Below are positions 4,173 to 37,313 of a stretch of DNA of 64,000 nt, piece by piece. The notes under the pieces are model-generated. The model was not told the DNA's origin. It saw nothing but the letters and a program-made list of their open reading frames with translations, and did not search any database. The number at the start of each line of letters is the position of its first letter. Position 1 is the first letter of the stretch. The DNA is taken from IMG/VR virus record IMGVR_UViG_3300028805_000081, positions 1-64,000 of that record. One strand, 5' to 3'. Both the position numbers and the translations under genes were made by a program. This DNA comes from a virus (taxonomy: Duplodnaviria > Caudoviricetes).

Positions 4173-7172
4173 TTATATTAATAAGCCATCTTTGAAGTGT
4201 AATGTTACACCGTCAATTGTTATGTCAGTTGTTTGTCCGTGCCAGTAATTATTGCCTTGCTTTACGGCAGTTCCACCTGTGATCCAAAGTCTACCGCCAA
4301 TAGTTGCATCAACGCGCTCATCTGTAGCAAAGTAATCCGACACAACAACCCTGTTTATTTTCTGATTTACTCGCAACCATTCAGCTATAAGAGTATGGTT
4401 AAAAGTAGATGTGCCGTTTTGGTCTGTGGTTGTTATACTTGCCGCAGTTACATTACCACTACACAGAACCCCACCAGCATCAGTGTTTAAATGGATGTTA
4501 CCTGCAGTTTCGAGAAAGATAGAATACTGATCCTGAATCTGCGCTGAAATATCTTCCTGTTTGCCGTACATCGTTGCACAGTTGTAAGGATTTGTAGCAG
4601 AGCCTACGTAGAATTTGCCACCAAAGAGAAGGTCTGTGGTTTGGATTTTGCCGGCTTGAAGGTTATCAACAGTGATCATATTCGCAAACATCTGATCACA
4701 ATAGATTTTATCAGCGTAAAGTTCATCCCATAAAGTAGCATTACGTCTGTCCGGATTTACGCTACCAGCTTTAAGCCACGAACCAGCCATGCCCGGTATA
4801 TTACCAGTCAAAGTGAAGATATTACCGTAGCTACCACTGCCATAATCCCATTTAAGATTATTAGCATAAACATCTCCATCAAATATAGCTGAATTTATAT
4901 TATACGATAATAACGATAATTTACCCGTACCATCGGTTTTTATATAATCACCGGCAGAGTTATATAACCCATCACTTCTGATTTCCCATCCGCCAATGTT
5001 ACCGGACTGAAGCTTTATAGAATTAGCTACAATATTACCGCTGTTATCTTCAGACAATACATCGTCCCAAACAGAACCATTCTTTTTCTGTATTTTAAAG
5101 CCATCATCAGGATTAATTAAGATCCTTGATGTGCTGTTATAAACCATAAACGGAGCATTTTCAAGTGATGCCCCGGCTGCATCTATCTTAAATGTTGAGT
5201 TAGCATCCCGGATAACTATCTGAGAACCGGCAATTAACTCGCCTACAAGAGCCTCAGCTACAACACCATAATACTCACTCTGCCCGATTGTTACTTTACC
5301 AATAGCCATTTTACAGCTCTGCCAGTTATCATCAGTAAAGGCAAGAACATTGTTAGTCATAGCTACCTGATGTGGATCATAATCGTTTTCATCATCATCC
5401 CACATACGACCTCTCAAACCATAACTGCCAAGCTTAAACTCCTGATTGTTTGCATTGATTATTTCCTGATTAGCAAGGTTAAGAGCATTATTAATATATT
5501 CTGTTACAGTTCCGTAGAACCCATTATTAACAGGTTCGTCCCATAACGGAGCTGCTAAACTTGTTTTTCTTGATGCTTTTATAGCCTGATTGAACCCATT
5601 TGAAAACTCATATGCACCGCCAATTAATCTATATGTATCAGACAAAATAGCGGTTGAGTTATCCGGGTTATCATAGTCTATTACAAGCTGAATTAATCTC
5701 GGTTCAACCCATTCATTAGGTTCTTTTTCAAGATTTACTGCACCGCCAAGAACGATATTATCCGTAAACTTCTTATATTCCGTATCAAAGAAGAAAGGAC
5801 TGATTTTGCATGTATACTGATATAATGGAGCAGATAATTTCTTCATCATCTGAAGTCCGTACTGATAAAGAGCCTTTTCAGTATCAATTTTACGTTCGTC
5901 AGGCATATCCGTAGTAAACACAAAGTTCTCGTTTTCATATACTGATCCATTGATATAATACTGGAGTTGTTCTAACTGGGTTGGTGTGAAGTTATTCTCA
6001 AAGGACAAAGACTGAACTATTATTTCGATATTGTACATATCACCACGCTTTTCAGCCTCGGCAAAGTCATAATCCATCTGTTTGTTTTTGATCTGATTTT
6101 CTTTAGCTACAATTTGTGGATATATATCTTGCAATCCCTGTTCATTATTAGCAGCAATATCTACCGCCTGTACGTCCTGAAGTGCAAGTAATTCAGATTT
6201 TAAAACCTTTAAATCAGCCTTATATGTAGTTGCTTCTTCAGATGCTTCTCTGAAATTAGCTACTGCTTCTTCATAATCTTCACGTTTTGATTCAATAAGA
6301 TCTAACCAGTCTGTAACCGCAGCTTGTAAATCTTGTGGCATACCCCATTTTTCATCGTTCATATAATAAGAAAAATCATAAATAACATCATTTCCGAGAG
6401 GATTTACAAGAGATATTCCAACACCTTCTGCACCTTTTACAGTCAGAGCTGTCACAATATCATCCGAAGATTCTGTGATAGTTTGTTCCTGAATTAAGTT
6501 TCTGAATGAAAAATTGATCCCGGTATTAATCGGTCTATACGTTTCTTCATTCTTACTGTAACAGTTTATCTTTTTATTTACTGTATCAAAGTCAAAGTAA
6601 CACTTAAATGTATCAGCTACCGTACCCATCAAGAATCCGTAAACTTGCTCATCATCAATATCCATCGTTCGATATTCTTTGAGTAAATCTGCGTCTACAT
6701 GCCCTATTGTCCAGCCTGTTTGCTGTTCAACTAAATATAACAGGGTAGGGAACTGCGCTAAAGATCCGTCCGGTTGTGGTACTTGTGAACCGTGAGCTGG
6801 ATCAATTGCATCCCACAATTTCATATATGTGTTTGCTGTATATGTTAAAGTAGTTTTATTAAGCGTTTCTTCGTAAGAATGAGCCGTAACATCTGCATAA
6901 TCTGTTTGTCCGTTCTGTGTATTGTCAACACTGTAGATTACAAATCTTCCAAATCCCTCAATTTCAAGTACCATACCTTTCTTCAAACAGTCATAATACT
7001 GTGAATTTTTATAGCACTTGAAAGTTAATTCTGATAAATTACAAAAAGTAGGTTTAATTACAACATTAAAAACATCAAGATAGCCGATCATAGCTAAGTC
7101 GAGTCTGTGTATGGAAATCTTAGGCTGCTTAATTAACCCTAATGAGTTATGATTAAAAACCATTATTAACAA
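4173..7172 (-). CDS. baseplate hub / tail-associated (Tal-like) protein
   Basis: 999 aa directly after Dit; GWTIGHVD, FKCYFDFDT, IVTALTVKG and NPLGNDVIYDFSYY motifs typical of siphovirus tail endopeptidase-like proteins; true start may be 7163. Confidence 0.8.
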   Translation of the reverse strand: MLIMVFNHNSLGLIKQPKISIHRLDLAMIGYLDVFNVVIKPTFCNLSELTFKCYKNSQYYDCLKKGMVLEIEGFGRFVIYSVDNTQNGQTDYADVTAHSYEETLNKTTLTYTANTYMKLWDAIDPAHGSQVPQPDGSLAQFPTLLYLVEQQTGWTIGHVDADLLKEYRTMDIDDEQVYGFLMGTVADTFKCYFDFDTVNKKINCYSKNEETYRPINTGINFSFRNLIQEQTITESSDDIVTALTVKGAEGVGISLVNPLGNDVIYDFSYYMNDEKWGMPQDLQAAVTDWLDLIESKREDYEEAVANFREASEEATTYKADLKVLKSELLALQDVQAVDIAANNEQGLQDIYPQIVAKENQIKNKQMDYDFAEAEKRGDMYNIEIIVQSLSFENNFTPTQLEQLQYYINGSVYENENFVFTTDMPDERKIDTEKALYQYGLQMMKKLSAPLYQYTCKISPFFFDTEYKKFTDNIVLGGAVNLEKEPNEWVEPRLIQLVIDYDNPDNSTAILSDTYRLIGGAYEFSNGFNQAIKASRKTSLAAPLWDEPVNNGFYGTVTEYINNALNLANQEIINANNQEFKLGSYGLRGRMWDDDENDYDPHQVAMTNNVLAFTDDNWQSCKMAIGKVTIGQSEYYGVVAEALVGELIAGSQIVIRDANSTFKIDAAGASLENAPFMVYNSTSRILINPDDGFKIQKKNGSVWDDVLSEDNSGNIVANSIKLQSGNIGGWEIRSDGLYNSAGDYIKTDGTGKLSLLSYNINSAIFDGDVYANNLKWDYGSGSYGNIFTLTGNIPGMAGSWLKAGSVNPDRRNATLWDELYADKIYCDQMFANMITVDNLQAGKIQTTDLLFGGKFYVGSATNPYNCATMYGKQEDISAQIQDQYSIFLETAGNIHLNTDAGGVLCSGNVTAASITTTDQNGTSTFNHTLIAEWLRVNQKINRVVVSDYFATDERVDATIGGRLWITGGTAVKQGNNYWHGQTTDITIDGVTLHFKDGLLI

Positions 7173-8026: not shown

Positions 8027-11000
8027 TCACACACTTCTTAATGTTCTGCCATTATATATATTAGTTTGCTGATTTACAACCTTGAATACGTCATTAACAA
8101 TAGACTCACGTACTGCTTTTAACTTATCAACAGTTGATGAATCAGCATCACCATTAATAACTATGTCACCCATATTGATAACCGGGGCTACCGAGTTATT
8201 TGTTACAGGCGCATTAGCTGTAAGTTTTGGTAAGGTATTCTCCATGAAATTCCTTGCCTGTTCTGCCGTAGCTACGACTTCACCTTTAAGGAGTTTTGCA
8301 AGGACTTCACCATGAGGATTTTGAGCAACGCCTTCAACGATACCCCCATTATGATACTTAGGTGTTCTCCAGTGTGGCATATTCTTCTTTTGCTCTGCCG
8401 TTACTGTTACTGAAGATGCTTTGCTATTATACAGGTTTGTGTAACCAGTATCATAATATCTTGGATCTTGACCAACAGTAGACCATGACGTGTTAGTAAG
8501 TGCTTGCATATTAGCCTTGGTTTCATTGAGAACCTTATTGAAATTAGCCATATCATTTGTAGCCGAAGTAGTATAAGACGATGTGGCGTTCTTCAGACTG
8601 TTCATAGCATTTTCAAGATCTTTAGTCTGCTGTTCGGCTACCGCCATCTGAGCTATAAGATTTGATAGTGCCAAATCGACATTTAACTGACCGTTTGCAT
8701 ATCTTTCGATTGCAAGATACGCACTGTTCCAAAGATTATCAAACTCTGCACGACTCTTTTTAGTATAATTCATCGTGTAAGCGAGTAAGTCATTGTAGAA
8801 CTGCTGTGATTTGCCATTAATTAAATTAATAGCATCTTCTCTGATTTTGCCTTCGTGATCAAGATAATCATCAATGACTTTAATTTGTGCTTCTATCTGC
8901 GATTCGTAGTCCTCTTGCTGTTTACTTAAAGCATCTTTTCTTAGGTCAGTTTCATGTTCCAATAAGAAATCAGTTTGTTCTGCTTGTTTCTCTTTGAGTT
9001 TTTGTTCAAGTTCAGCCTTACGTTTCATATCTTCAAGCGAATAGTTTGCACCTTCGATACTTAACGCTGCTATTTCTTGTTCGATATTAAGAATATTCTT
9101 ATTTTTTTCGTTTAAATTTTTCTCGAAATTATATTGATCTTTTTCGAGATCAATTAATTGTTTCCTACGTTCAATAAGTTTCTTATATCCTTCAAGATTT
9201 TCCTTTAATTCATTCTTACGGTCATTTTTTTGACGCTTCAACATATCCATAGTAAGATCAATTAAATCTTCTATGTCTTTCTTAGCGTCTTTCATTTGGT
9301 CAGAAAGGTCTTTTATAGCGTTCTTCTGATCTTGTAAAGCCTTTGTATGATCCTGTGTTTTATCTTTTGCGCTGTCATGCACCTGACCAAGAACATTTAT
9401 CTGAACCTGTAATTTCTTGATTTGTTCTTCGTATTTCTTTGCTTTTTCAGATGCGTCAATATACTCCTGAATTGCCTTTTGCTGCCCCTCAAGATATTTA
9501 GTGCTAACTTGATATGGATCTGTAGTATTTGTTTTTCTTGCCTGTTCAAGTCTTGCATCAAGCTGCGCTAACTCTATCTTTGCCTGTGCTACTGTTTTGA
9601 TACTTGCCAGTTCATCACTGTAAGCTGCAAGTTTCTCCTTTGTAGCTTGCATAAGAGTATTGGTTTCTTCAAGTTGTGCCTGTAATGAAGTTTTCTGTTC
9701 TTCAAGTTTAGCTTTTCTCAGATTTTCAAGAGCTTCTTCTTCAATCTTATATCCGTACTGGCTTTCGAGAATTGCATCGTTAAGCTGCGGGTACAGGTCA
9801 AGAAGTTCAATAATTTCTGATGCACTAAAGTATTTATCAGGATCGTTGTTTGTCTGAAATGTCTTTTCAAGTTTCTCAAATGACTCGTTTGCATTATTGA
9901 TCTTTACAGTCATTTCAGACGTTGCATTGCCGATAAGCTGTAAGTTTCCGAGGACTTCAGCTAATGGATCTACAAGTTCTTCAACATTATCCTTTGCGGA
10001 TTCAGTTACAAAGATGAGTTCTTTAAGAGCATCAAGAACATATATATCTCCGTTTGCAAATTGTGCTAACTTATCAAAGTAATCTGAGTTAGACAGTGAG
10101 CCTTGTTCAAATAATGCAATATACTGTTCTGCCTGTGCTTTAGAATAACTCTTTACATTGTCAATATAGTCTTTATTCTTTGTTTCAAGTATTGAATACT
10201 GCTTAGAAACAAGATTAAATAATGCTTCTTCTTCATCTGACAATCCACCAACTCTTGTTGCCCGGATGTCAGCAAATTCTAAATACTTCTTTTCAAGTAT
10301 ATCGAAATACTGTATTTCATCCCGGTAAGAGTTAGGATCAATACCTAATTTGAATTGATATTTGCCGTTTTCAGATGTAATACCAGCACTATCAAACAAT
10401 TCTTGAATGTCTTTGCTGATAACATCCTTATCTTGGGTATCAACTCTAATTGAAAATTCGCCAATAGATTGTTTGTTTCCAGCAAAAGCATCTTTAATGC
10501 CTGACCAACCGGTAACAACCCAATTATCATTTAATTCTTTCTTTGCTTCCTCATATGCTTTACGGTTTTGAGCATCATTAAGATAAATACTTCTTTCATT
10601 AATCGACTCTTTTTCAATAGCATCATTTAAATCTTTACGTGCTGTAGTAAGATCTCTGATGTTTTCGATTTCCAAACCGTATTTCTTATTCAGTTCATCC
10701 TTGATTTCATTTAAGCTATTGATTTTATCATACTCTGACTGTTCAGAATCAATTATCTGATCAATTTGTTCAGTGTATGTTTTAAAATCAGCTACATTAT
10801 TTTCAAGTTGTTGTGAATTATCTTTAAGTGACTGAGTAAGTTCCTTGCTGGCATTAACAAGTTTTGAAATGCCTGTTACAACAAGTGAAATAACAAGTCC
10901 GATACCGGCATTAATAACCGCATTGAGTGCTACTGTTGCTGCATTAAGTGCTATAGTAGATGCCGTTGCAGCTCTTTGAGCATTAGCGAATCCTCTTGTT

Positions 11001-11752
11001 GATGCCTGTGCGCCATTAAGAGTAGTAAGATATGCCGCAAAAGTCGGGTTAGATGTTGCCATCTGATTAATGAATTGTCTTTGAGCTTCTGCTCCTTGTG
11101 CGATAGTGGCGTTATAAGCAGCCACAAGATTCTTTGTTTTGCCCAAATTCTGAATGCTAAAGAATCCGCCACCAGCACCACCAATAATACCGGAGATTAC
11201 AGGGATGAGTGTCTTTAATCCGTTTCCGCTTGCTGTAAGTTTGTCTATCGCTTCAGATAAGTTAATTACAAAGTCAAGTACAGCTTTATAATCATCTGAG
11301 TTAAGTATATTTGACGATACACTTTGGAATATAGCAGCTATCTTTTGCTGTTTTGCAATGATAGAGTCTTGCCATGCTTCCTGTTCCGCCATTGCTGAAC
11401 CGGTTGCGTTAGAAGTAGCTTCGATTACTCTTTCTGCATCTTCAAAATTAGTCATAATTGCAGAGAACACGTTTGCCTGTCTCGCACCGGCAAGAAGTTT
11501 TTCTATCGCAGCCTGTTCGTTTACTGTGAGTTCATTCCAAACATGAGATAACTCTCTTAATATTTGTGTTGTATTTTTGTATTCTCCGTTTGCCTTCTGA
11601 ATATCTACCGGGGCAGAAGTTTTTGAAGTGAGTCCTAATACCTGATTTCTGTAGTCAGATATGGTTTCAGCTGCATATTCAGCTTCTTCGCCCATTTCTT
11701 CAAGTTCTGCCTTAGTTGACATAAGACGGAGAGAAATTGTTTTTAATGCTAT
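8027..11752 (-). CDS. tail tape measure protein, exon 3 (spliced product predicted 1940 aa)
   Basis: Begins IALKTISLRL immediately after the intron terminal G at 11753; long coiled-coil with hydrophobic segments. Confidence 0.9.
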   Translation of the reverse strand: MALKTISLRLMSTKAELEEMGEEAEYAAETISDYRNQVLGLTSKTSAPVDIQKANGEYKNTTQILRELSHVWNELTVNEQAAIEKLLAGARQANVFSAIMTNFEDAERVIEATSNATGSAMAEQEAWQDSIIAKQQKIAAIFQSVSSNILNSDDYKAVLDFVINLSEAIDKLTASGNGLKTLIPVISGIIGGAGGGFFSIQNLGKTKNLVAAYNATIAQGAEAQRQFINQMATSNPTFAAYLTTLNGAQASTRGFANAQRAATASTIALNAATVALNAVINAGIGLVISLVVTGISKLVNASKELTQSLKDNSQQLENNVADFKTYTEQIDQIIDSEQSEYDKINSLNEIKDELNKKYGLEIENIRDLTTARKDLNDAIEKESINERSIYLNDAQNRKAYEEAKKELNDNWVVTGWSGIKDAFAGNKQSIGEFSIRVDTQDKDVISKDIQELFDSAGITSENGKYQFKLGIDPNSYRDEIQYFDILEKKYLEFADIRATRVGGLSDEEEALFNLVSKQYSILETKNKDYIDNVKSYSKAQAEQYIALFEQGSLSNSDYFDKLAQFANGDIYVLDALKELIFVTESAKDNVEELVDPLAEVLGNLQLIGNATSEMTVKINNANESFEKLEKTFQTNNDPDKYFSASEIIELLDLYPQLNDAILESQYGYKIEEEALENLRKAKLEEQKTSLQAQLEETNTLMQATKEKLAAYSDELASIKTVAQAKIELAQLDARLEQARKTNTTDPYQVSTKYLEGQQKAIQEYIDASEKAKKYEEQIKKLQVQINVLGQVHDSAKDKTQDHTKALQDQKNAIKDLSDQMKDAKKDIEDLIDLTMDMLKRQKNDRKNELKENLEGYKKLIERRKQLIDLEKDQYNFEKNLNEKNKNILNIEQEIAALSIEGANYSLEDMKRKAELEQKLKEKQAEQTDFLLEHETDLRKDALSKQQEDYESQIEAQIKVIDDYLDHEGKIREDAINLINGKSQQFYNDLLAYTMNYTKKSRAEFDNLWNSAYLAIERYANGQLNVDLALSNLIAQMAVAEQQTKDLENAMNSLKNATSSYTTSATNDMANFNKVLNETKANMQALTNTSWSTVGQDPRYYDTGYTNLYNSKASSVTVTAEQKKNMPHWRTPKYHNGGIVEGVAQNPHGEVLAKLLKGEVVATAEQARNFMENTLPKLTANAPVTNNSVAPVINMGDIVINGDADSSTVDKLKAVRESIVNDVFKVVNQQTNIYNGRTLRSV

Positions 11753-12946
11753 CAATCTGTTGCTTTTATGACCTATTATTAATCAATAGGCGGCAAGGAA
11801 TTTCTTCCTTACTCTGCAATTTTATATATAGTTGCAGTTCAGATCATACCTTTCACCTTGTCATCACGACAATGCTTATTCTGCATACGCTTAACATTAC
11901 TGTTAAACTGTGATCGTTACGGGATTCTATATCAATTTAATATAAAGAATTAATTATTTCGTCTTTTAATATTATTTCGTTGTCTTTAAGGGTATAGTTG
12001 TAAGAATGATAATTTGATAAAGCGCCATTATTTTCAATGTATAATTGAATTAACTTTTTACATAAATCAAAATTATTTATAATATCGTACTCCCACAAAT
12101 ACAATACCTCAATATTTAAATAGTTTTTGATATATGTATGTTTGCGTCTATCGGCATCTATTCTATGCTTTTGTATTTTATTGGGTTCATTTTTATTGAT
12201 TTTAGGATTAGAAATATTATAATGCCAATAATCTCCCATGACTTCGATAATCAAATTATAATCATCTAAATAATTATCAACAGAATAATACTTAACACAA
12301 TATTCATTCTGATAGTTTATTTTCATTGAAGATAAACATTCATTAACTATAATTTGTGGGCGAGTATTGCATTTTCCGAGTTGCATTTTAGTAGTTTCCG
12401 CACCTCTTATTCTTGATTTTTCTTTCCATTCTTCGTCTTGTGAAAATACTTCTCTATGCCAATCTTTTCTACATTGAGCACTACAAAAATGATGTTCATA
12501 TTTATCAAGATTATATTTATGTATTTCAAATAACTCTCCACAATAATCACATGGGATAGTTTTCCCTTGAAATTTAGGATTTTTAAATCCTGTATTGGTT
12601 TTCTGCCATCCCCATTGACATTCCACACTACAAAATCTTTTTGGACTTCCGGGTTTACAAGAATACCATTCATGACAAAATTCACATTGTCTTATCTCAG
12701 TAAACATAAACTTCTTCAATTCTGAAGCACATTCGGCACTACAAGTATATGTTTTCTGTTTCTTAATTCTTGATTGAATCATGTACATTAATTTTCCACA
12801 CCATTGACAACGAATATATTTACCAGTTTTATGCATTTATTAATTCTTCCTTTATTTTTTTTATTTGATATAGTCTTACCCACGGTATTGACCATTTTCA
12901 GGCTGTTCACCGTTTTGAGCAGAATTTAACGTAAGCCTTATTAAAA
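11753..12946 (-). mobile_element. group I intron (TMP intron 2, 1194 nt) containing an endonuclease ORF
   Basis: 5' exon ends in U; P1 CGUAGGU/GCUUACG with U-G at the splice site; P10 UUUUAAU/AUUAAAA; P3 UUCUGC/GCAGAA; P7 GAUCA/UGAUC; terminal G; removal restores the frame (QNPQTVG|IALKTISLR). Confidence 0.9.
11937..12836 (-). CDS. intron-encoded homing endonuclease: N-terminal Zn-finger repeats plus Vsr/DUF559-like (EDxHD-type) nuclease domain
   Basis: Three CxxC...CSxxC units, then YSVDNYL...IIEVMGDYWH...DADRRK...LYLWEYDI. Confidence 0.8.
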   Translation of the reverse strand: MHKTGKYIRCQWCGKLMYMIQSRIKKQKTYTCSAECASELKKFMFTEIRQCEFCHEWYSCKPGSPKRFCSVECQWGWQKTNTGFKNPKFQGKTIPCDYCGELFEIHKYNLDKYEHHFCSAQCRKDWHREVFSQDEEWKEKSRIRGAETTKMQLGKCNTRPQIIVNECLSSMKINYQNEYCVKYYSVDNYLDDYNLIIEVMGDYWHYNISNPKINKNEPNKIQKHRIDADRRKHTYIKNYLNIEVLYLWEYDIINNFDLCKKLIQLYIENNGALSNYHSYNYTLKDNEIILKDEIINSLY

Positions 12947-13093
12947 ACCTACGGTTTGAGGGTTTTGCAAAACGTCGTTGGCTGATACAATAAGTCCAAT
13001 AGACTCTGATAAGCTGTTGTTCGCAGTAGCTAAACTGGAGGCTGAACGCTGAAGTGCTTCACCTACGCCCTCCGCTGAAATGCTAAAATTGTT
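12947..13093 (-). CDS. tail tape measure protein, exon 2 (147 nt, 49 aa; not in ORF track)
   Basis: Translates to NNFSISAEGVGEALQRSASSLATANNSLSESIGLIVSANDVLQNPQTVG, a TP901-type tape measure core segment. Confidence 0.9.
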
Positions 13094-13420
13094 CTTAAAC
13101 TGTTACTTTTTGTCTAATAATAGACATACTGACCATACATAAAATATGGCGGATAGGTATTTCTGCCTATCTCTCACGTTTCATTGTTAAGATTATAGCG
13201 TGAGGTCGGACTGTATATTATACCCTCTTGTCTATATAAAATAGAGTAGGGCAGATAGATTCGGGGCATATGTTGCCACACACCCCACCGCAGTCTCTAC
13301 AATCAGATTACTTTTTATATTTCATAAATAATCTAATCTCGGTCTGAATTATCTCTAACCTTTAACCGATTTATCTATCTACTTATCAACATATTACTAT
13401 GCTGAATCGGCAACAATTCT
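13094..13420 (-). mobile_element. group I intron (TMP intron 1, 327 nt, ORF-less)
   Basis: P1 GUCGGU/GCCGAU with U-G; 9-bp P10 AGAAUUGUU/AACAAUUUU; P3 AGAUAGA/UCUAUCU; P7 GACUG/CAGUC; terminal G; restores DKFNLVG|NNFSIS. Confidence 0.92.
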
Positions 13421-15370
13421 ACCGACTAAGTTAAATTTATCCACTATCTCCATAACGTTTTCAGCTTCAATACCAAACGCCTTCATGGTAGAAATAATGG
13501 ACTGGCTTGCTTCTTCCGCACTCGAAATTTCACCAACATTCTGATAAATTACAGATGCTTTAGCTAATTCCTGTGCTTCATTGATGTTATATCCCAGCTT
13601 TGCGTATTCAGCTGTTGCTTCAATAATATTAGTTATCTCAGTATGAAGTTCCTTTGCAGTAGCCGTGGCATTTTTGAATACATCTTCATAAGTTGCCTCA
13701 GATTCATCAGTAACCTTTCTGAGATTTACCATTGCTGTGTCAAGATCCCGGACGTTCTCTAACAGTTCTCTAAATCCACGGCTGAGTGCCATGAACATAG
13801 ATGTGATACCAGTGAATCGTAATACTCGACCAAAGGTTTCCTTCATTCTCTCACCAAAGGTCTTACCCGCTAACCCAGCATCCTGAACCGCTATCTTTAA
13901 TGATCTAAACTCATTCTGAAGTCTGCGTAAATCATTAACATTGGTAGCATTAGCAATGCCATCACGTAACAACTGAAACTGAACTGTATATGTCTGTGCA
14001 GCTCTTGTATTAGCATTAGCAAACGCTTCAACCTGTTGCTGTAAAATTCTCAGCCTTTGTGTGAACTGTTCATCTCTTGACATAGTTCTCAGCTGAGTCT
14101 GTAATTGCTGTGCATTGTTTGTCAAGACTTTAAGCTTGTCATTAAATGCATCAAGCTCCTGATTGGATTTTACGCCCTCAAGACTACTTCTAAGACCGTC
14201 AACCTTAGTCTTAAAATCTCCGGTATATACTCCGGCTTGTTTCCATCTTTCAATAAGAAGATCAATTTTACTCCGGGCAGTATCTACATTCCGGGCAAGT
14301 GTGGCAGCCGACTCATCACGATCAATATTATTACCCGATTCTTTACGTAAAAGTTTCAGTTCAGATTGTAACTCTTTTACTTTGATCAAAAAATCATTAT
14401 ACTGTTCAGTAGGAACGATTTTACCACTCTGATTGTCAGCTACCATCTGATCCATGATGCTCTTGATGTCGTTATACTTATCAACTACACCTTGTAACTT
14501 ATCAGACTCGCCAACAAACATCTTTGATTCCGGATTAAGACTAAGCTGATTAATCTCATTAAGAGTTATCTTATATCTTTCAAGTGATACCCTTTGTGAT
14601 TCAAGCTGTTTAGTAGTCTGTTCAAAAGAATTTGCTCTTACATTACCGCCAGTATATTTGAAAAACTCCTGAATTACATTACCTTCATCGTCTTTTATCT
14701 TGACAAGATTGTAATGAAGTTTCTGTAACTGATCATTAGCATCCTTGATTTCAGCTGTGAACCCGGTAATCTCATTATTCTTATTGAAAGTATAATTAAT
14801 AGTCGGATTACCAGTCTTACCAAGTACAGATGCCTGATAATCTGCTAAGAAATCCTGTCTTGTATCATATGTTGATTTAAGTGAACCCCATCCTTCGACA
14901 ACATGATTAAGAGTTTTGCCCATTGCCTGAAGTTGAGCATCGACAGCTCTTATTTCTTCAACATCTCTTTCGACAGATGACTTCAGAATAAATCCTTCAG
15001 TATTATCAGTAAACTTTGCTCTGTCAAAATTAAGAGTTTTAATAGCTTCTCCGGCTTCAGCAATTCTCGCCTTGAATTTAGAAAGTCCCTCGTTATCAAA
15101 TATTTCATCAATTTTAATATCAAGATTCTTTGTGCCAGTAGGATCAAACATCTTCATAAGCTGACTCTTAATGTCATTTGCACTTTCAAGATATTTACGT
15201 CCCTGTGCTTCAAGATCTGCTTTATCAAATATAGTTATCTGCCCGGCTTTACCTTTATTATTGACATTTACAGAACCACTGATATTATCTAACGCACTCT
15301 GAACATTCTTTTTGGTTTCCTTTTCGTCAAGTCTGCCTACCAAGGTCAAAATAAAATTTTCGTCTGCCAT
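13421..15370 (-). CDS. tail tape measure protein, exon 1 (650 codons)
   Basis: LDTAMVNLRKVTD, YAKLGY and IISTMKAFGIEA...IVDKFN motifs; the ORF reads 7 codons into the intron before stopping. Confidence 0.9.
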
Positions 15371-32958: not shown

Positions 32959-33030
32959 TTGCAGCACCGGGAATTGAACCCGGATCTACAGGTTATGAGC
33001 CTGTTGTGTTACCATTACACTCATGCTGCG
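32959..33030 (-). tRNA. tRNA-Met(CAT), initiator-like
   Basis: Cloverleaf: acceptor CGCAGCA/TGCTGCA (C1:A72 mismatch), anticodon arm ACAGG-CTCATAA-CCTGT, T arm CCGGG-TTCAATT-CCCGG; CCA not encoded. Confidence 0.9.
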
Positions 33031-33413: not shown

Positions 33414-34268
33414 TTATGGTTTCTCCGATTTTTTCTTAGCTCTCGATTCTCTCATGTTACGTCTTTTCTGTTCAAGTCTTACTTCTCTTTGGCAACACTC
33501 ACAGCGTTTTCTTTTACATTTCCCTTCGGGTATTTCAAACGCTCTGCCACAAACCTCACAAACGCATACTCTTGATTTTACATGTTTATTACAATGATAG
33601 TGGTTATTTGAGTTTGGTTTAAATATCACACCACAGTCAACACAAACTCTATAAAATGCACCGTTCGCTTTTTCCCACCACATTCCAAGATTGGTAATGT
33701 TGGTGACTTCAAATACCGGTTCTCCTTCCAAATCCAAAATCTCGACTGCAATACTTGTTTTTAACATACTTCTTGCTGGCGTGATATATTTCTGCATGTA
33801 AAGATCATGAAGTATACACAAGAAGTTGTCAAAATTGTGGTTGATGTTTGCCAAATGGATAATTTCACTATCGGTTGTATTTACCCAATTATGCCTGTAT
33901 GTGATGTAATTCATCTTTGCAAGAACAAGATATGTGAACATAACTTTTTTGATTGGCTGCGTAGACAGTTCATTGATTTTATCAATTTCTTTCTGAGTTA
34001 TCGGAATTGATTCAATATCTCTAAGCGGTTTCTTATGAGCATCATTTGCAATCGCTTCCATTGTGTTATGCCATTGATTTTCATTAAAACCAGCTCTGTT
34101 TGCCTTCAAATACTCTGACACTTCTTTTACAGCAGCTTCTGGACTATACCCTTTATTATTCACATAGTATCTGATGAGTATATTCACTATTTGTCTTATC
34201 TTACACAATGAAAGATTTATGTCTTTCAGGATCAGTTCAGCTTCTTTAACTTCATTAAGGATTAACAA
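33414..34268 (-). CDS. protein coupled to the RNAP gene, with C-terminal Zn ribbons (possible transcription factor/subunit)
   Basis: Overlaps the RNAP stop; CVDCG...CNKH and CEVCG...CECC; probable TTG start at 34268 (ORF track starts at 34325). Confidence 0.6.
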   Translation of the reverse strand: MLILNEVKEAELILKDINLSLCKIRQIVNILIRYYVNNKGYSPEAAVKEVSEYLKANRAGFNENQWHNTMEAIANDAHKKPLRDIESIPITQKEIDKINELSTQPIKKVMFTYLVLAKMNYITYRHNWVNTTDSEIIHLANINHNFDNFLCILHDLYMQKYITPARSMLKTSIAVEILDLEGEPVFEVTNITNLGMWWEKANGAFYRVCVDCGVIFKPNSNNHYHCNKHVKSRVCVCEVCGRAFEIPEGKCKRKRCECCQREVRLEQKRRNMRESRAKKKSEKP

Positions 34269-35349
34269 CCTTACACTTCCTTTCAGAAAATCTGTAGCCA
34301 TTAAATTCAATATCCCCGGCATCATCTCTTGTGATGTAGCTCAGTTCAAAATTGTTTTTGACAAGAAGATTTTCTATGATTTGTTCTCCACATATATCCC
34401 ATGCAAACGCCTTTGTTCTCTCGCTTGTATAGCAAAGGTCAAGGATAATTTCACAAAGTATTTTTGAGTTTGGGCAGATCTCAAAAGCCTTTTCCTTGAA
34501 CTCTCTGCCTATTTCCTTGAATCTATCTGTGTAATCATCGCCTGACGTTCTCATTTCGTTCTTCTCAATATCCAGCCTTGCCTTACGCTTCGTATATTCA
34601 ACATAAAGCTTTACAATTTCAGATGCAATCTTTGGATCATATCTTGTGTTGGACTTCATAATAGTATAGTCGAAAGGAGTTTTAGCCTTTACGCTGCTTT
34701 TAAATCCTTTAAACTCATCTTCTACCATATGACAAAGGCGGTTCATAGTGCTGATGTTATCATTAACAGGATAGAGCTTTTCATACCATTCAATCCATTC
34801 TTTCTGTTCTTCAGTATGTTCAGACAGAGCAAATAATTCTTTTGTACTCATTCTGAACAGCATCTTGCACTGGCGTTCCGCAGTCTTGACAAACGACTTA
34901 TATTTCTTATCAAGATCCGGATAGATGTATCTCATAAAGTATGGTTTCTTGTCTGCACATATTGTATTATTAAATATATCTTCTTCAGATAATTCGGCAT
35001 CACCTTTCGGTTTGATAGGGGAGTACCAATATTTTGGCATATTGTAACATATAGTACCTTTTACTGCATCTATGTCGCTTTGCTGAAAGTATTCTCCACA
35101 TATAATCCTATATGTTAAAATATTTGACTCTATACTATCAGCCGGGAATAGTGGCAGCAAATCATACATGCTCGTTACCCTGTTGGTGATTGCGCCAACC
35201 TTTGAACCAAACGCCTTTTTATTTCCTTCTCTTAAAAGATCCTCTGTAACTAAAGTTTTTTCGGCTGAATTTGACGCACACATTATCGTAGGTTCATATC
35301 TCCAATTTTTAATTAGCACATCATTATTTGTTGTAAAAACAATATCGCT
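34255..35349 (-). CDS. yonO: YonO-like RNA polymerase, exon 2
   Basis: Starts SDIVFTTNN after the intron; VGAITNRVT, IDAVKG and KPYFMRYIY motifs typical of RdRP-like phage RNAPs. Confidence 0.85.
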   Translation of the reverse strand, partial: SDIVFTTNNDVLIKNWRYEPTIMCASNSAEKTLVTEDLLREGNKKAFGSKVGAITNRVTSMYDLLPLFPADSIESNILTYRIICGEYFQQSDIDAVKGTICYNMPKYWYSPIKPKGDAELSEEDIFNNTICADKKPYFMRYIYPDLDKKYKSFVKTAERQCKMLFRMSTKELFALSEHTEEQKEWIEWYEKLYPVNDNISTMNRLCHMVEDEFKGFKSSVKAKTPFDYTIMKSNTRYDPKIASEIVKLYVEYTKRKARLDIEKNEMRTSGDDYTDRFKEIGREFKEKAFEICPNSKILCEIILDLCYTSERTKAFAWDICGEQIIENLLVKNNFELSYITRDDAGDIEFNGYRFSERKCKVVNP

Positions 35350-35663
35350 CCTTGATACCCTCGGTTTCCCGATATTTATTAGGGGAGTAGATCATCTCAT
35401 CACCTTATGTCAATTCATAAGCATCACTGGGATTTCTCCGTGTTTGGCACTTGCTTTTAGGATTTGCACCTATCGCTACGGATTTCATAGGCTCATTAGA
35501 GTCCGTATATCCTGATCGTTACACCTTCAAAAACATCACTGTTTAAGCTTGGCACGGTATTTTCATGAAGTTAATTACTTTTTAGATTTCCACCGTTAGC
35601 ACGTATTTACGCACACCTTACATTTGTAAGTTCACCAAATTTTACAAGGACAATGGAATGTTT
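35350..35663 (-). mobile_element. group I intron (314 nt, ORF-less) within the RNAP catalytic motif
   Basis: 8-bp P1 ACAAGGAU/GUCCUUGU with U-G; P7 GAUCA/UGAUC; GAAA-capped 3' hairpin; terminal G; removal joins NGADKD|SDIVF in frame. Confidence 0.9.
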
Positions 35664-37313
35664 ATCCTTGTCTGCCCCGTTTAAAGCGTGACAGAAACTA
35701 TCATGACAATTCAGCATGATTAAATTTCCACAATACCTGTACCAATAATCAGCTTCAGTATTATTTGAACATACTTTCATCTTCCTGATATTTGCATGAC
35801 AGCTCATCGGACTTCGATAACAGGCTACTTCTTCAGATCCTTTATCTTTCCAAAACTTATGATAAATCTCACCCGCTTTCAGCAATCCATAATCTTCATT
35901 TTTTACATCAAGCTTAAAAATATACTGGCACAAAGCATATGGATCTCCAACGATTATACCAAAGTTGCCTTTAACCTTTACAACACCTATTTCCGCATCT
36001 TTTATTTTCTTAGCAATCAGTGAGCTTACTCTGTTGATTACATACGGATCATTCATCATTTCCGGGCAAATCTGAATTGCCTTAATCCAGTCATCTTCAC
36101 CGATAGCATTTTCATCGGTAATCTTCATGCCTTTCAGAAATAACAATGTTTTTTGCCTGTCGTAATGAATTATATCCTTTATTTCATCAACAGTAGGGGA
36201 GATGAGTTCATGTATCTGACCGTTTGTCAGCTCATAACTCTGTATAAACTGGTAATTCAGCGTCCGGACTTCATCAAGTTCCTTCGGAGTGACCTTTGTA
36301 ACAGACAGCGTATACATATTTTTATGACATTTCTGAATGTATTCGTCAATGCTATCATATGCACTCCAAAGTTTCAGCATTGAAGTAGTAAGTATAAGAT
36401 CAATGTCAAATATATCATGCTCCTTGCCCCAAACATCTGTAACAATCTGCTTGTTATGAACTCTCGCAAACTCCTTAAAATCGAACGTAGCTACCATACC
36501 TTTGGTAAAGGCATATCGTATGCAGCATCCACTCATCAGATAATCAAGATGCATATCATCTGACCATATCTGAGCCATCTCCGGACTGATTAATCCGTAC
36601 CCATCTGACTCATCAAGTTCTATTTCTGCGGTCTTATACTGCATAACAGGTTCATCGCTCTCACTGTTGTCAAGGTAAATAACATCTTCAGTGAAGTGAG
36701 TAATAAGATCATCTACAACAAGAATCCTGTCAGTATTTGTAACCGGATAGCTGCCACTCAGAGTTAAAGCCTTATAAGCTTCATACTTTGCCGGAACAAT
36801 CTTGTAATCTGATCGTCTGCCGTTCTCAACAAGCCCGTTAAGATAATCACGTATATCTTCCCGGCAGTACATTACAGTACACTTCTTTACCTGATTTGGA
36901 GAACCGATAAACCTATAATACTTCATTCCGTTTACGCTAAATCCGTCCATCCTATCTATGTCACTTGGCTTATCCATCACAACATTGATAAGCTCCGGGA
37001 TAAACTGCATAGTATTAAGTTCATCATACAAAGTCTTGATGTACTTCTTATTCTCAGGCGTATTATCTTTCTTCTTAGTATCTTTGATTATCTTCTTGAT
37101 CCGTTCGTAGCACTCCATCTCATGTGCCCGGTCTTTATGATTGTAGAAATCCAGCCATCTGACAACCTGACTGTCAGATATTGAAATCACCTGATCATTC
37201 GTTCTTGCTGTTACAAAGGGTAACTGCAATACCTTATCCGAAAGTATATCCTTGCTGTGCAGTTTATAAATATATCTCGGAAACATAATACTTTTCATGA
37301 AGTACACCTCCAA
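35664..37313 (-). CDS. yonO: YonO-like single-subunit two-barrel DNA-dependent RNA polymerase, exon 1 (spliced product predicted 914 aa)
   Basis: SDGYGLI, CIRYAFTKGM, LNYQFIQS, YRSPM and LNGADKD motifs (RdRP/YonO family). Confidence 0.88.

Follow-up and report, generated by a model that had tools for sequence, protein, structure and literature searches.

We analysed a 64,000-nucleotide stretch (hereafter the window) of a tailed-phage genome in IMG/VR (Duplodnaviria, Caudoviricetes; positions 1 to 64,000 of record IMGVR_UViG_3300028805_000081, 109,929 bp in all), in which a gene for a YonO-like RNA polymerase is interrupted, within the codons for its catalytic aspartates, by a group I intron. 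Run metadata give sheep gut as the origin of the DNA, with close copies in goat, bovine and other gut metagenomes, and the phage is an uncultured sheep-gut or rumen phage of Clostridia type. On the minus strand a 568-codon open reading frame (ORF; 37313..35607) is followed by one of 354 codons (35319..34255), and these resolve into the following features:

35664–37313, minus strand: exon 1 of the gene for the YonO-like two-barrel RNA polymerase, with 550 codons counted from the TTG at 37313
35607–35609, minus strand: in-frame TAA that ends unspliced translation, 18 codons into the intron
35350–35663, minus strand: group I intron of 314 nucleotides (nt) without an ORF of its own, identified by the in-frame colinear join, the core structure and RNA contigs
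34255–35349, minus strand: exon 2, 364 codons plus stop, beginning AGC GAU AUU, in which AGC GAU encodes Ser-Asp3

A polymerase active site assembled by splicing

Judged by its sequence, the product of this gene is a YonO-like single-chain two-barrel RNA polymerase. The exon 1 ORF matches the Pfam family RdRP (PF05183; E 2e-12; 47 bits, the cut-off being 23.8), the match to SPbeta YonO has 26% identity (tblastn, E 1e-20 to 1e-21), and exon 2 matches counterparts in phages c-st, PMBT24 and BUCT082 (tblastn); in PHROGs the halves fall into different families (PHROG 25339 for exon 1, PHROG 35857 for exon 2), and one full-length family exists as well. For SPbeta YonO, DNA-dependent transcription of late genes is established and the Asp triad is needed for activity (PMC5467207).

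Exon 1 ends ...AAC GGG GCA GAC AAG GAU at 35664, with GAC AAG GAU encoding Asp1-Lys-Asp2, and the frame of the second ORF is open upstream to the AGC GAU AUU at 35349. The joined exons read NGADKD^SDIVFTTNNDVL (NGADKD^SDIVF, the caret marking the junction), a join that is colinear, without gap and residue for residue, with the intron-less homologs of Enterocloster phage PMBT24 (NGCDFDGDAIYSTNNKVL, motif DFDGD) and Bacillus phage BUCT082 (GSDFDYDIIATTSDETVL, motif DFDYD), and colinear as well with 66 intron-less IMG/VR loci. All three Asp align with the DFDGD, DNDGD and DMDGD of homologs, DNDGD being the form found here in YonO.

Because Asp3 is encoded only in exon 2, with no start codon upstream of it (the earliest candidate start within exon 2 is GTG 35319, beyond Asp3), an active enzyme needs splicing. 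An earlier reading of the letters alone (the initial annotation) had described just such a phage RNA polymerase, with a catalytic triad formed only by splicing, and had placed a 314-nt ORF-less group I intron at 35350–35663 between Asp2 and Asp3; the gene assignment is borne out by the PF05183 and YonO matches, and the intron coordinates are exact. Its unspliced product of 568 amino acids (aa) with two Asp, ending at the TAA 35609..35607, and its spliced product of 914 aa with NGADKD^SDIVF also stand, both counted from the TTG. The likely real start of the gene is ATG 37298, at which database calls of near-identical proteins begin; from there the unspliced product is not 568 but 563 aa, as long as the database proteins P0004 and P0006, and the spliced protein is 909 aa.

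Structure of the intron

The elements of the intron, all on the minus strand, are listed in transcript order:

35664–35671, minus strand: 5' strand of P1, ACAAGGAU, the last 8 nt of exon 1, with the splice-site U at 35664
35644–35651, minus strand: internal guide sequence and 3' strand of P1, GUCCUUGU, pairing with ACAAGGAU
35633–35639, minus strand: 5' strand of P3, UUUGGUG, seven pairs with UGCCAAA 35449..35443
35554–35596, minus strand: P4-P5 hairpin (ACGGUG ... UACCGU), its loop being the site of the HNH gene in the related introns of loci L120 and L019
35513–35517, minus strand: 5' strand of P7, GAUCA, inside the R-like element GUAACGAUCAGG
35443–35449, minus strand: 3' strand of P3, UGCCAAA, followed by an extra hairpin specific to the window (35442..35425) and by P8 (35421..35404)
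35390–35394, minus strand: 3' strand of P7, UGAUC, inside the S-like element GAGAUGAUCUAC
35350–35371, minus strand: P9 hairpin CGGgaaaCCG (35371..35362) and 3' tail AGGGUAUCAAGG, with the terminal G at 35350

P1 (ACAAGGAU/GUCCUUGU) places a U-G wobble at the 5' splice site, and in homologous introns at the identical codon boundary its guide covaries with the exon codons: CAUGGAU/GUUCAUG in L019, ACUUUGAU/GUCAAAGU in L022 and AUAUGGAU/GUCCAUAU in L018. An RNAalifold consensus of nine ORF-less members shows outer P3 positions that vary across all nine yet remain complementary, and recovers P4, P6, two hairpins between P7 and the 3' strand of P3, P8 and P9. P7 carries a double compensatory change (GAUCA/UGAUC in the window, GACUA/UAGUC in the family consensus), P9 covaries with its c-st counterpart (CAUGgaaaCAUG), and the last nucleotide is G here and in all homologous introns examined. 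Scored as a whole, the core including the P7 pseudoknot has 53 pairs, with 92.1% of cells paired and 31 pairs changed on both sides, values that slightly understate P3 because MAFFT misplaced the window's 3' strand of P3 at the window-specific hairpin; none of 500 shuffles did as well, and slid controls reached 32–47%. The two hairpins between P7 and the 3' strand of P3, as in subgroup IA, make the intron IA-like. Two further covarying hairpins lie between the 5' strand of P3 and P4 (window 35599–35630, minus strand), for which no fit to the standard subgroup diagram was found.

The intron belongs to a widely scattered family. A 19-nt core motif retrieved 27 further members from IMG/VR, and the last 54 nt at the 3' end share about 90% identity with introns from numerous genes of Staphylococcus, Listeria, Bacillus, Enterococcus and Brochothrix phages, among them terminase, DNA polymerase, the yonO of phi3T and other phage genes.

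Excision of the intron in RNA

Contigs that skip exactly 314 nt occur in both of two sheep-gut metatranscriptome runs (X15 and X17). Their joint is 35348^35663, which, given a one-letter ambiguity, is equivalent to 35349^35664; one joined contig of 259 nt extends 105 and 154 nt to either side with no mismatches. The DNA run that is the probable source of the window (X1) yields no joined contig, and its contigs extend from both exons into the intron. Intron-bearing pieces are also present in X15 and X17; the contigs yield no ratio of spliced to unspliced RNA, stretches without RNA contig cover are uninformative, and the small-share runs X18–X21 were left out of the interpretation. Since the RNA contigs join the exons at 35349^35664, the messenger RNA reads GAU^AGC and the product carries DKDSD; the 3' splice site given in the initial annotation is thus the one used in vivo. 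An alternative site that would yield DxDGD was considered and rejected, the sole GGN-GAY option in the 3' region being out of frame and the junction being fixed by the RNA contigs.

Serine at the fourth position of the motif

The serine that replaces the customary glycine had been read in the initial annotation as a change that may reflect homing-site escape or drift, with the proviso that the reading would fall if DxDSD proved ordinary in intron-less homologs. A survey of homologs shows that it is: DKDSD and DFDSD are ordinary where no intron is present. Of 80 IMG/VR relatives, 11 have DKDSD and no intron at this site, and DFDYD occurs in one cultured phage. Among 88 read-through proteins from the best 120 clusters, position 4 is Gly in 66, Ser in 20 and Ala in 2. 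Ser is usual in the window's own clade, including the intron-less P0005, P0009 and P0013 (91%, 83% and 78% identical), and the eight residues conserved without exception across two-barrel polymerases (PMC2919709) do not include the Gly of the motif. We regard Ser at this position as a tolerated alternative to Gly that is typical of the lineage and has nothing to do with the intron itself, and the DKDSD enzyme is presumably active; within the YonO-like family Ser, Ala or Tyr can each take the place of the Gly in DxDGD.

Distribution and mobility

The intron is patchily distributed among close relatives. It is present in P0004 (98%) and P0006 (86%), and the site is empty in P0005/L121 (91% aa identity), which reads an uninterrupted GAT TCT GAC. 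Intron copies are found in the independent assemblies P0004, P0006, L120 and L125, and in 66 of the 120 best clusters the polymerase gene is free of introns. Most relatives lack the intron, and it is therefore dispensable.

A near-identical twin from another metagenome (L120) is the most informative of these copies. There exon 1 is 83.2% identical to that of the window, and the intron is 98.9% identical over its 5' 87 nt and 98.6% over its 3' 214 nt; in the P4-P5 loop, where the window has only a short loop, the twin carries a 225-aa ORF with NUMOD4 and HNH_3 domains, an endonuclease of the I-HmuI-like HNH type. Because the near-identical L120 intron holds this ORF, the window copy appears to be a deletion derivative whose mobility would depend on others. 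Exon identity between the two loci is 93% in the 100 nt adjoining the intron and 74–82% farther away, a gradient consistent with co-conversion. HNH ORFs also lie inside the related introns of L019, L021, L022, L059 and L130.

Nor is the window's site the only one in this part of the gene to have been invaded. Within 12 nt of the motif there are three insertion points, following NG+U, Asp1 and Asp2: relative to the window's site, the introns of L089 (5618–5855), L059/L062 and L021 are placed 11 nt (behind NG+U) or 6 nt (behind Asp1) upstream, that of L089 being of a different, Rfam-recognised subtype. One 12-nt stretch of polymerase genes has thus been invaded independently at least three times. 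Among the 120 best clusters, the protein stops directly behind Asp2 in about 27, behind NG or Asp1 in about 7, and about 92 codons into exon 2 in 21.

At this last position we also observed a further insertion site. In L035 (5957–6998) the insert is about 1042 nt long and holds a 199-aa Cys-rich ORF without a Pfam match; equivalents occur in L043, L045–L048, L054–L056, L088 and L072 and in the Enterocloster phages CB473P3 and CB457P1. PMBT24 has neither insert, and its close relatives have one or two.

A probable selfish element at a conserved site

We consider it very probable that the interruption is a group I intron of the mobile (homing) type that has lost its endonuclease gene and occupies, as an ordinary selfish element, the stretch of a YonO-like polymerase gene whose DNA is most conserved. 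The evidence comprises its position, its structure with covariation, its excision in RNA, its presence/absence polymorphism and its endonuclease-bearing twin. After transcription the intron would fold through P1 with its U-G pair, the P3/P7 pseudoknot, P4–P6, P8, P9 and the terminal G, and, presumably by self-splicing chemistry, would be precisely excised, with ligation of ...GAU^AGC... to give one polymerase of 909–914 aa with D-K-D-S-D; unspliced RNA would give only a truncated, presumably dead N-terminal fragment. Homing would be the route of spread, with the I-HmuI-like HNH endonucleases of sister introns targeting the conserved sequence and copying the intron into the empty alleles of co-infecting relatives, and the intron would be tolerated because it splices.

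Several observations weigh against this explanation. Rfam Intron_gpI (RF00028) gives no match at the gathering score in the window, nor at E up to 10 in 35000–36000; because the same model also misses the related phage introns of L003, L018, L019, L022 and L006 (the yonO of phi3T) while scoring 85.6 bits on the neighbouring-site intron of L089, we attribute this to the limit of its sensitivity. The joined RNA is known from contigs, at a depth of about 3, in one sample of one study, and it could in principle stem from an exactly identical intron-less DNA variant contaminating the RNA library. The raised exon identity beside the intron may partly reflect protein conservation. Finally, the window's ORF list contains no endonuclease ORF in the intron, so this copy is not currently autonomous.

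A second explanation places the same parts in a contest between phages, in which endonuclease-bearing copies nick the polymerase genes of co-infecting relatives while occupied or recoded sites (TCN-Ser, Tyr, Ala) are immune. There is a precedent in PhiPA3 gp210: a group I intron that follows two conserved Asp in an RNA polymerase beta gene of this phage encodes an HNH nickase of I-HmuI-like type that cripples PhiKZ, with single-base changes beside the insertion site conferring escape (PMC11620839), and the NUMOD4/HNH ORFs of the sister introns would supply the nickases. Codon usage points the same way: the Ser alleles occupied by the intron all use AGY (3 of 3; AGC in the window, AGT in L122 and L130), whereas among the empty ones eight lineages have TCT or TCG and one has AGT, an association of codon family with occupancy at Fisher ~0.02 in a sample that is small and uncorrected for relatedness. 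The same bias could, however, come equally from pairing of the 3' exon in P10 or from co-conversion, the sampled alleles are not phylogenetically independent, and the window copy has no endonuclease. Taken as an account of the intron in the window, this explanation seems to us unlikely.

P10 bears directly on that codon. In L122 and L130 a P10 of GUGAY with RUCAC forms between exon-2 bases +2 to +6 (GUGAU, GUGAC) and the AUCAC and GUCAC that immediately precede the guide sequence, with covariation at one of its pairs; in the window P10 is weaker. Exon-2 codons pair in P10, and thus codon 4 belongs to the homing site and to P10 alike. The split between AGY and TCN hints at homing or P10 constraints on this codon, and it is suggestive of TCN-Ser, Tyr or Ala alleles being resistant states. 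The proposal that Gly gave way to Ser through homing-site escape accordingly finds indirect support for TCN-Ser alleles elsewhere, but not for the occupied AGC allele of the window. A more general version, in which the DxD^xD stretch is a battleground of gut Clostridia phages, with nickases hitting empty GGN or AGY sites and occupied or TCN-Ser, Tyr or Ala sites immune, we offer as a speculative idea that is unlikely to be right. If it is true, the otherwise unexpected loss of the near-universal Gly from the metal-binding loop would be driven by intron and endonuclease pressure and not by enzyme function; the relation of codon family to intron occupancy makes a small case of such possible pressure on an active-site codon.

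The initial annotation itself raised the possibility of a gate; on this reading, regulated splicing that senses guanosine triphosphate and Mg would delay or condition the making of active polymerase and with it late transcription. Active enzyme does depend on splicing, spliced and intron-containing RNA pieces are both present in the metatranscriptomes, the tape measure gene is also broken by two group I-like introns, and the splicing efficiency of T4 introns varies with the growth state of the host. Against this stand the absence of the intron from relatives at 91%, 83% and 78% identity and from most of the family, its patchy distribution and lateral movement, its far greater conservation than that of its host gene, the homing endonuclease in the twin copy and the recurrence of the same intron family in unrelated genes; homing introns, moreover, generally insert in conserved catalytic motifs. 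Retention across relatives, as expected of a splicing switch, is not what we find, and with an intron that is dispensable, laterally mobile and of a family at home in unrelated genes, a gate on late transcription is very improbable.

That there is no intron at all, the polymerase being truly split into two assembling polypeptides or the break being an assembly artefact, is scarcely credible: split polymerase subunits are known in jumbo phages (PMC2919709) and public annotations of c-st, phi3T and Goe11 do give separate ORFs, but no start codon of the second ORF lies far enough upstream to take in Ser-Asp3, a group I core with covariation is present in the interruption, which recurs in independent assemblies, and RNA contigs join the exons.

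The homing-type intron is thus an instance of classic homing-intron biology at a conserved site, with no new regulatory principle; what it adds is an RNA-verified group I intron of this type that interrupts the Mg-binding Asp triad in an RNA polymerase related to YonO.

Neighbouring genes and the tape measure introns

Three further features were placed on the minus strand around the polymerase exons and in the tape measure gene:

33414–34325, minus strand: downstream ORF of 303 aa, overlapping the stop end of the polymerase gene by 71 nt
13094–13420 (approximate), minus strand: predicted tape measure intron A, with P1 AGUCGGU/GCCGAUU, R GUAGAGACUGC and S AUAUACAGUCC
11753–12946, minus strand: predicted tape measure intron B, 1194 nt, with P1 CGUAGGU/GCUUACG

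The 303-aa ORF ends in a CxxC...FKPxSN zinc ribbon that matches YonO residues 790–819 weakly (BLASTP, E 0.004), and also has a weak PriX match. Its counterpart is likewise separate and overlapping in c-st (CST177, annotated as a YonO C-terminal homolog), PMBT24, L121 and L122. The zinc ribbon resembles the C-terminal one of YonO, so the ORF may encode a part of the polymerase that stands apart from the rest, a detached C-terminal module. Downstream of the polymerase operon we also noted a tRNA gene (window 32960–33029, minus strand; Rfam 60.8 bits) with a CAU anticodon loop of Met or Ile2 type.

The tape measure gene (8027–15370, minus strand), with its PhageMin_Tail domain in 13397–15370, has two predicted interruptions within 11753–13420, separated by a predicted micro-exon of 147 nt. 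The R and S elements of intron B share the GAUCA/UGAUC variant of P7 with the polymerase intron; intron B holds a 299-aa zinc-finger ORF (12836..11937), and its predicted junction reads ...QNPQTVG^IALKTISLRL. For intron A, boundaries after GAU 13406 or GUU 13412 were rejected in favour of a GGU^AGA site, which gives a better, 7-bp P1 with a U-G pair. Searches with blastn and nhmmer for more copies of the polymerase intron's family returned none beyond the polymerase one in the window or the 110-kb record, the tape measure introns being too diverged, or of another subtype, for these searches. Of the suggested second gate in the tape measure gene, the interruption is borne out, since the gene does look split by two group I-like introns, but the gate role is not supported.

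Comparison with known systems

The window intron is of the same RNA family as the I-HmuI-type HNH introns of Bacillus phages, found in the DNA polymerase genes of SPO1 and SP82 and, as I-BasI, in Bastille (Bastillevirinae; PMC11878797). Its blastn matches to the DNA polymerase introns of the SPO1-like phages SDFMU_Pbc and phiAGATE have 80% identity over 46% of the intron, and in both settings the interrupted part of the polymerase gene is conserved and catalytic. Unlike the Bacillus phage introns, that of the window has lost its ORF and is hosted by a YonO-like RNA polymerase rather than a DNA polymerase.

In the literature, the closest parallels are introns of jumbo phages that interrupt RNA polymerase beta genes. 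In the case of PhiPA3 gp210, in the gene for the beta subunit of the virion RNA polymerase (PMC11620839), and in the mobile intron of 201phi2-1 gp273/274 (PMC2919709), a group I intron likewise lies right after two conserved Asp of a two-barrel polymerase and is likewise tied to an I-HmuI-like HNH endonuclease. Those introns, however, interrupt beta-like (second barrel) subunits of multisubunit enzymes, whereas that of the window interrupts the beta-prime-type DxDxD metal-A loop of a single-chain enzyme. Our literature searches found no paper linking the YonO enzyme family to introns.

Within that family, SPbeta YonO (PMC5467207) has its Asp triad at the equivalent place, but its gene has no intron, and the window enzyme differs from it in having Ser for Gly and a separate downstream zinc-ribbon ORF. 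The yonO genes of phi3T, Goe11 and Goe14 are split elsewhere, after residue 625, by intervening sequences whose 3' end is about 90% identical to the window intron. In Goe11 (L005) we observed that the insert, 4983–6287, holds a 300-aa ORF, and in phi3T (L006) that it spans 4483–4897; the records of the three phages give yonO_1 and yonO_2 or two hypothetical proteins, with no intron annotated. Clostridium phage c-st has a 317-nt intervening sequence between CST179 and CST178, at the identical codon boundary (DMD^GD) and with a covarying P9. Unlike the window, c-st has Gly at position 4, and the 5' half of its intron is divergent; its record describes a 'YonO-homolog, N-ter only' with the intron not annotated. 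The annotations of c-st, phi3T and Goe11 thus list exons as separate or N-terminal-only genes, so that recognition of the intron corrects the gene models of gut and Bacillus phages alike.

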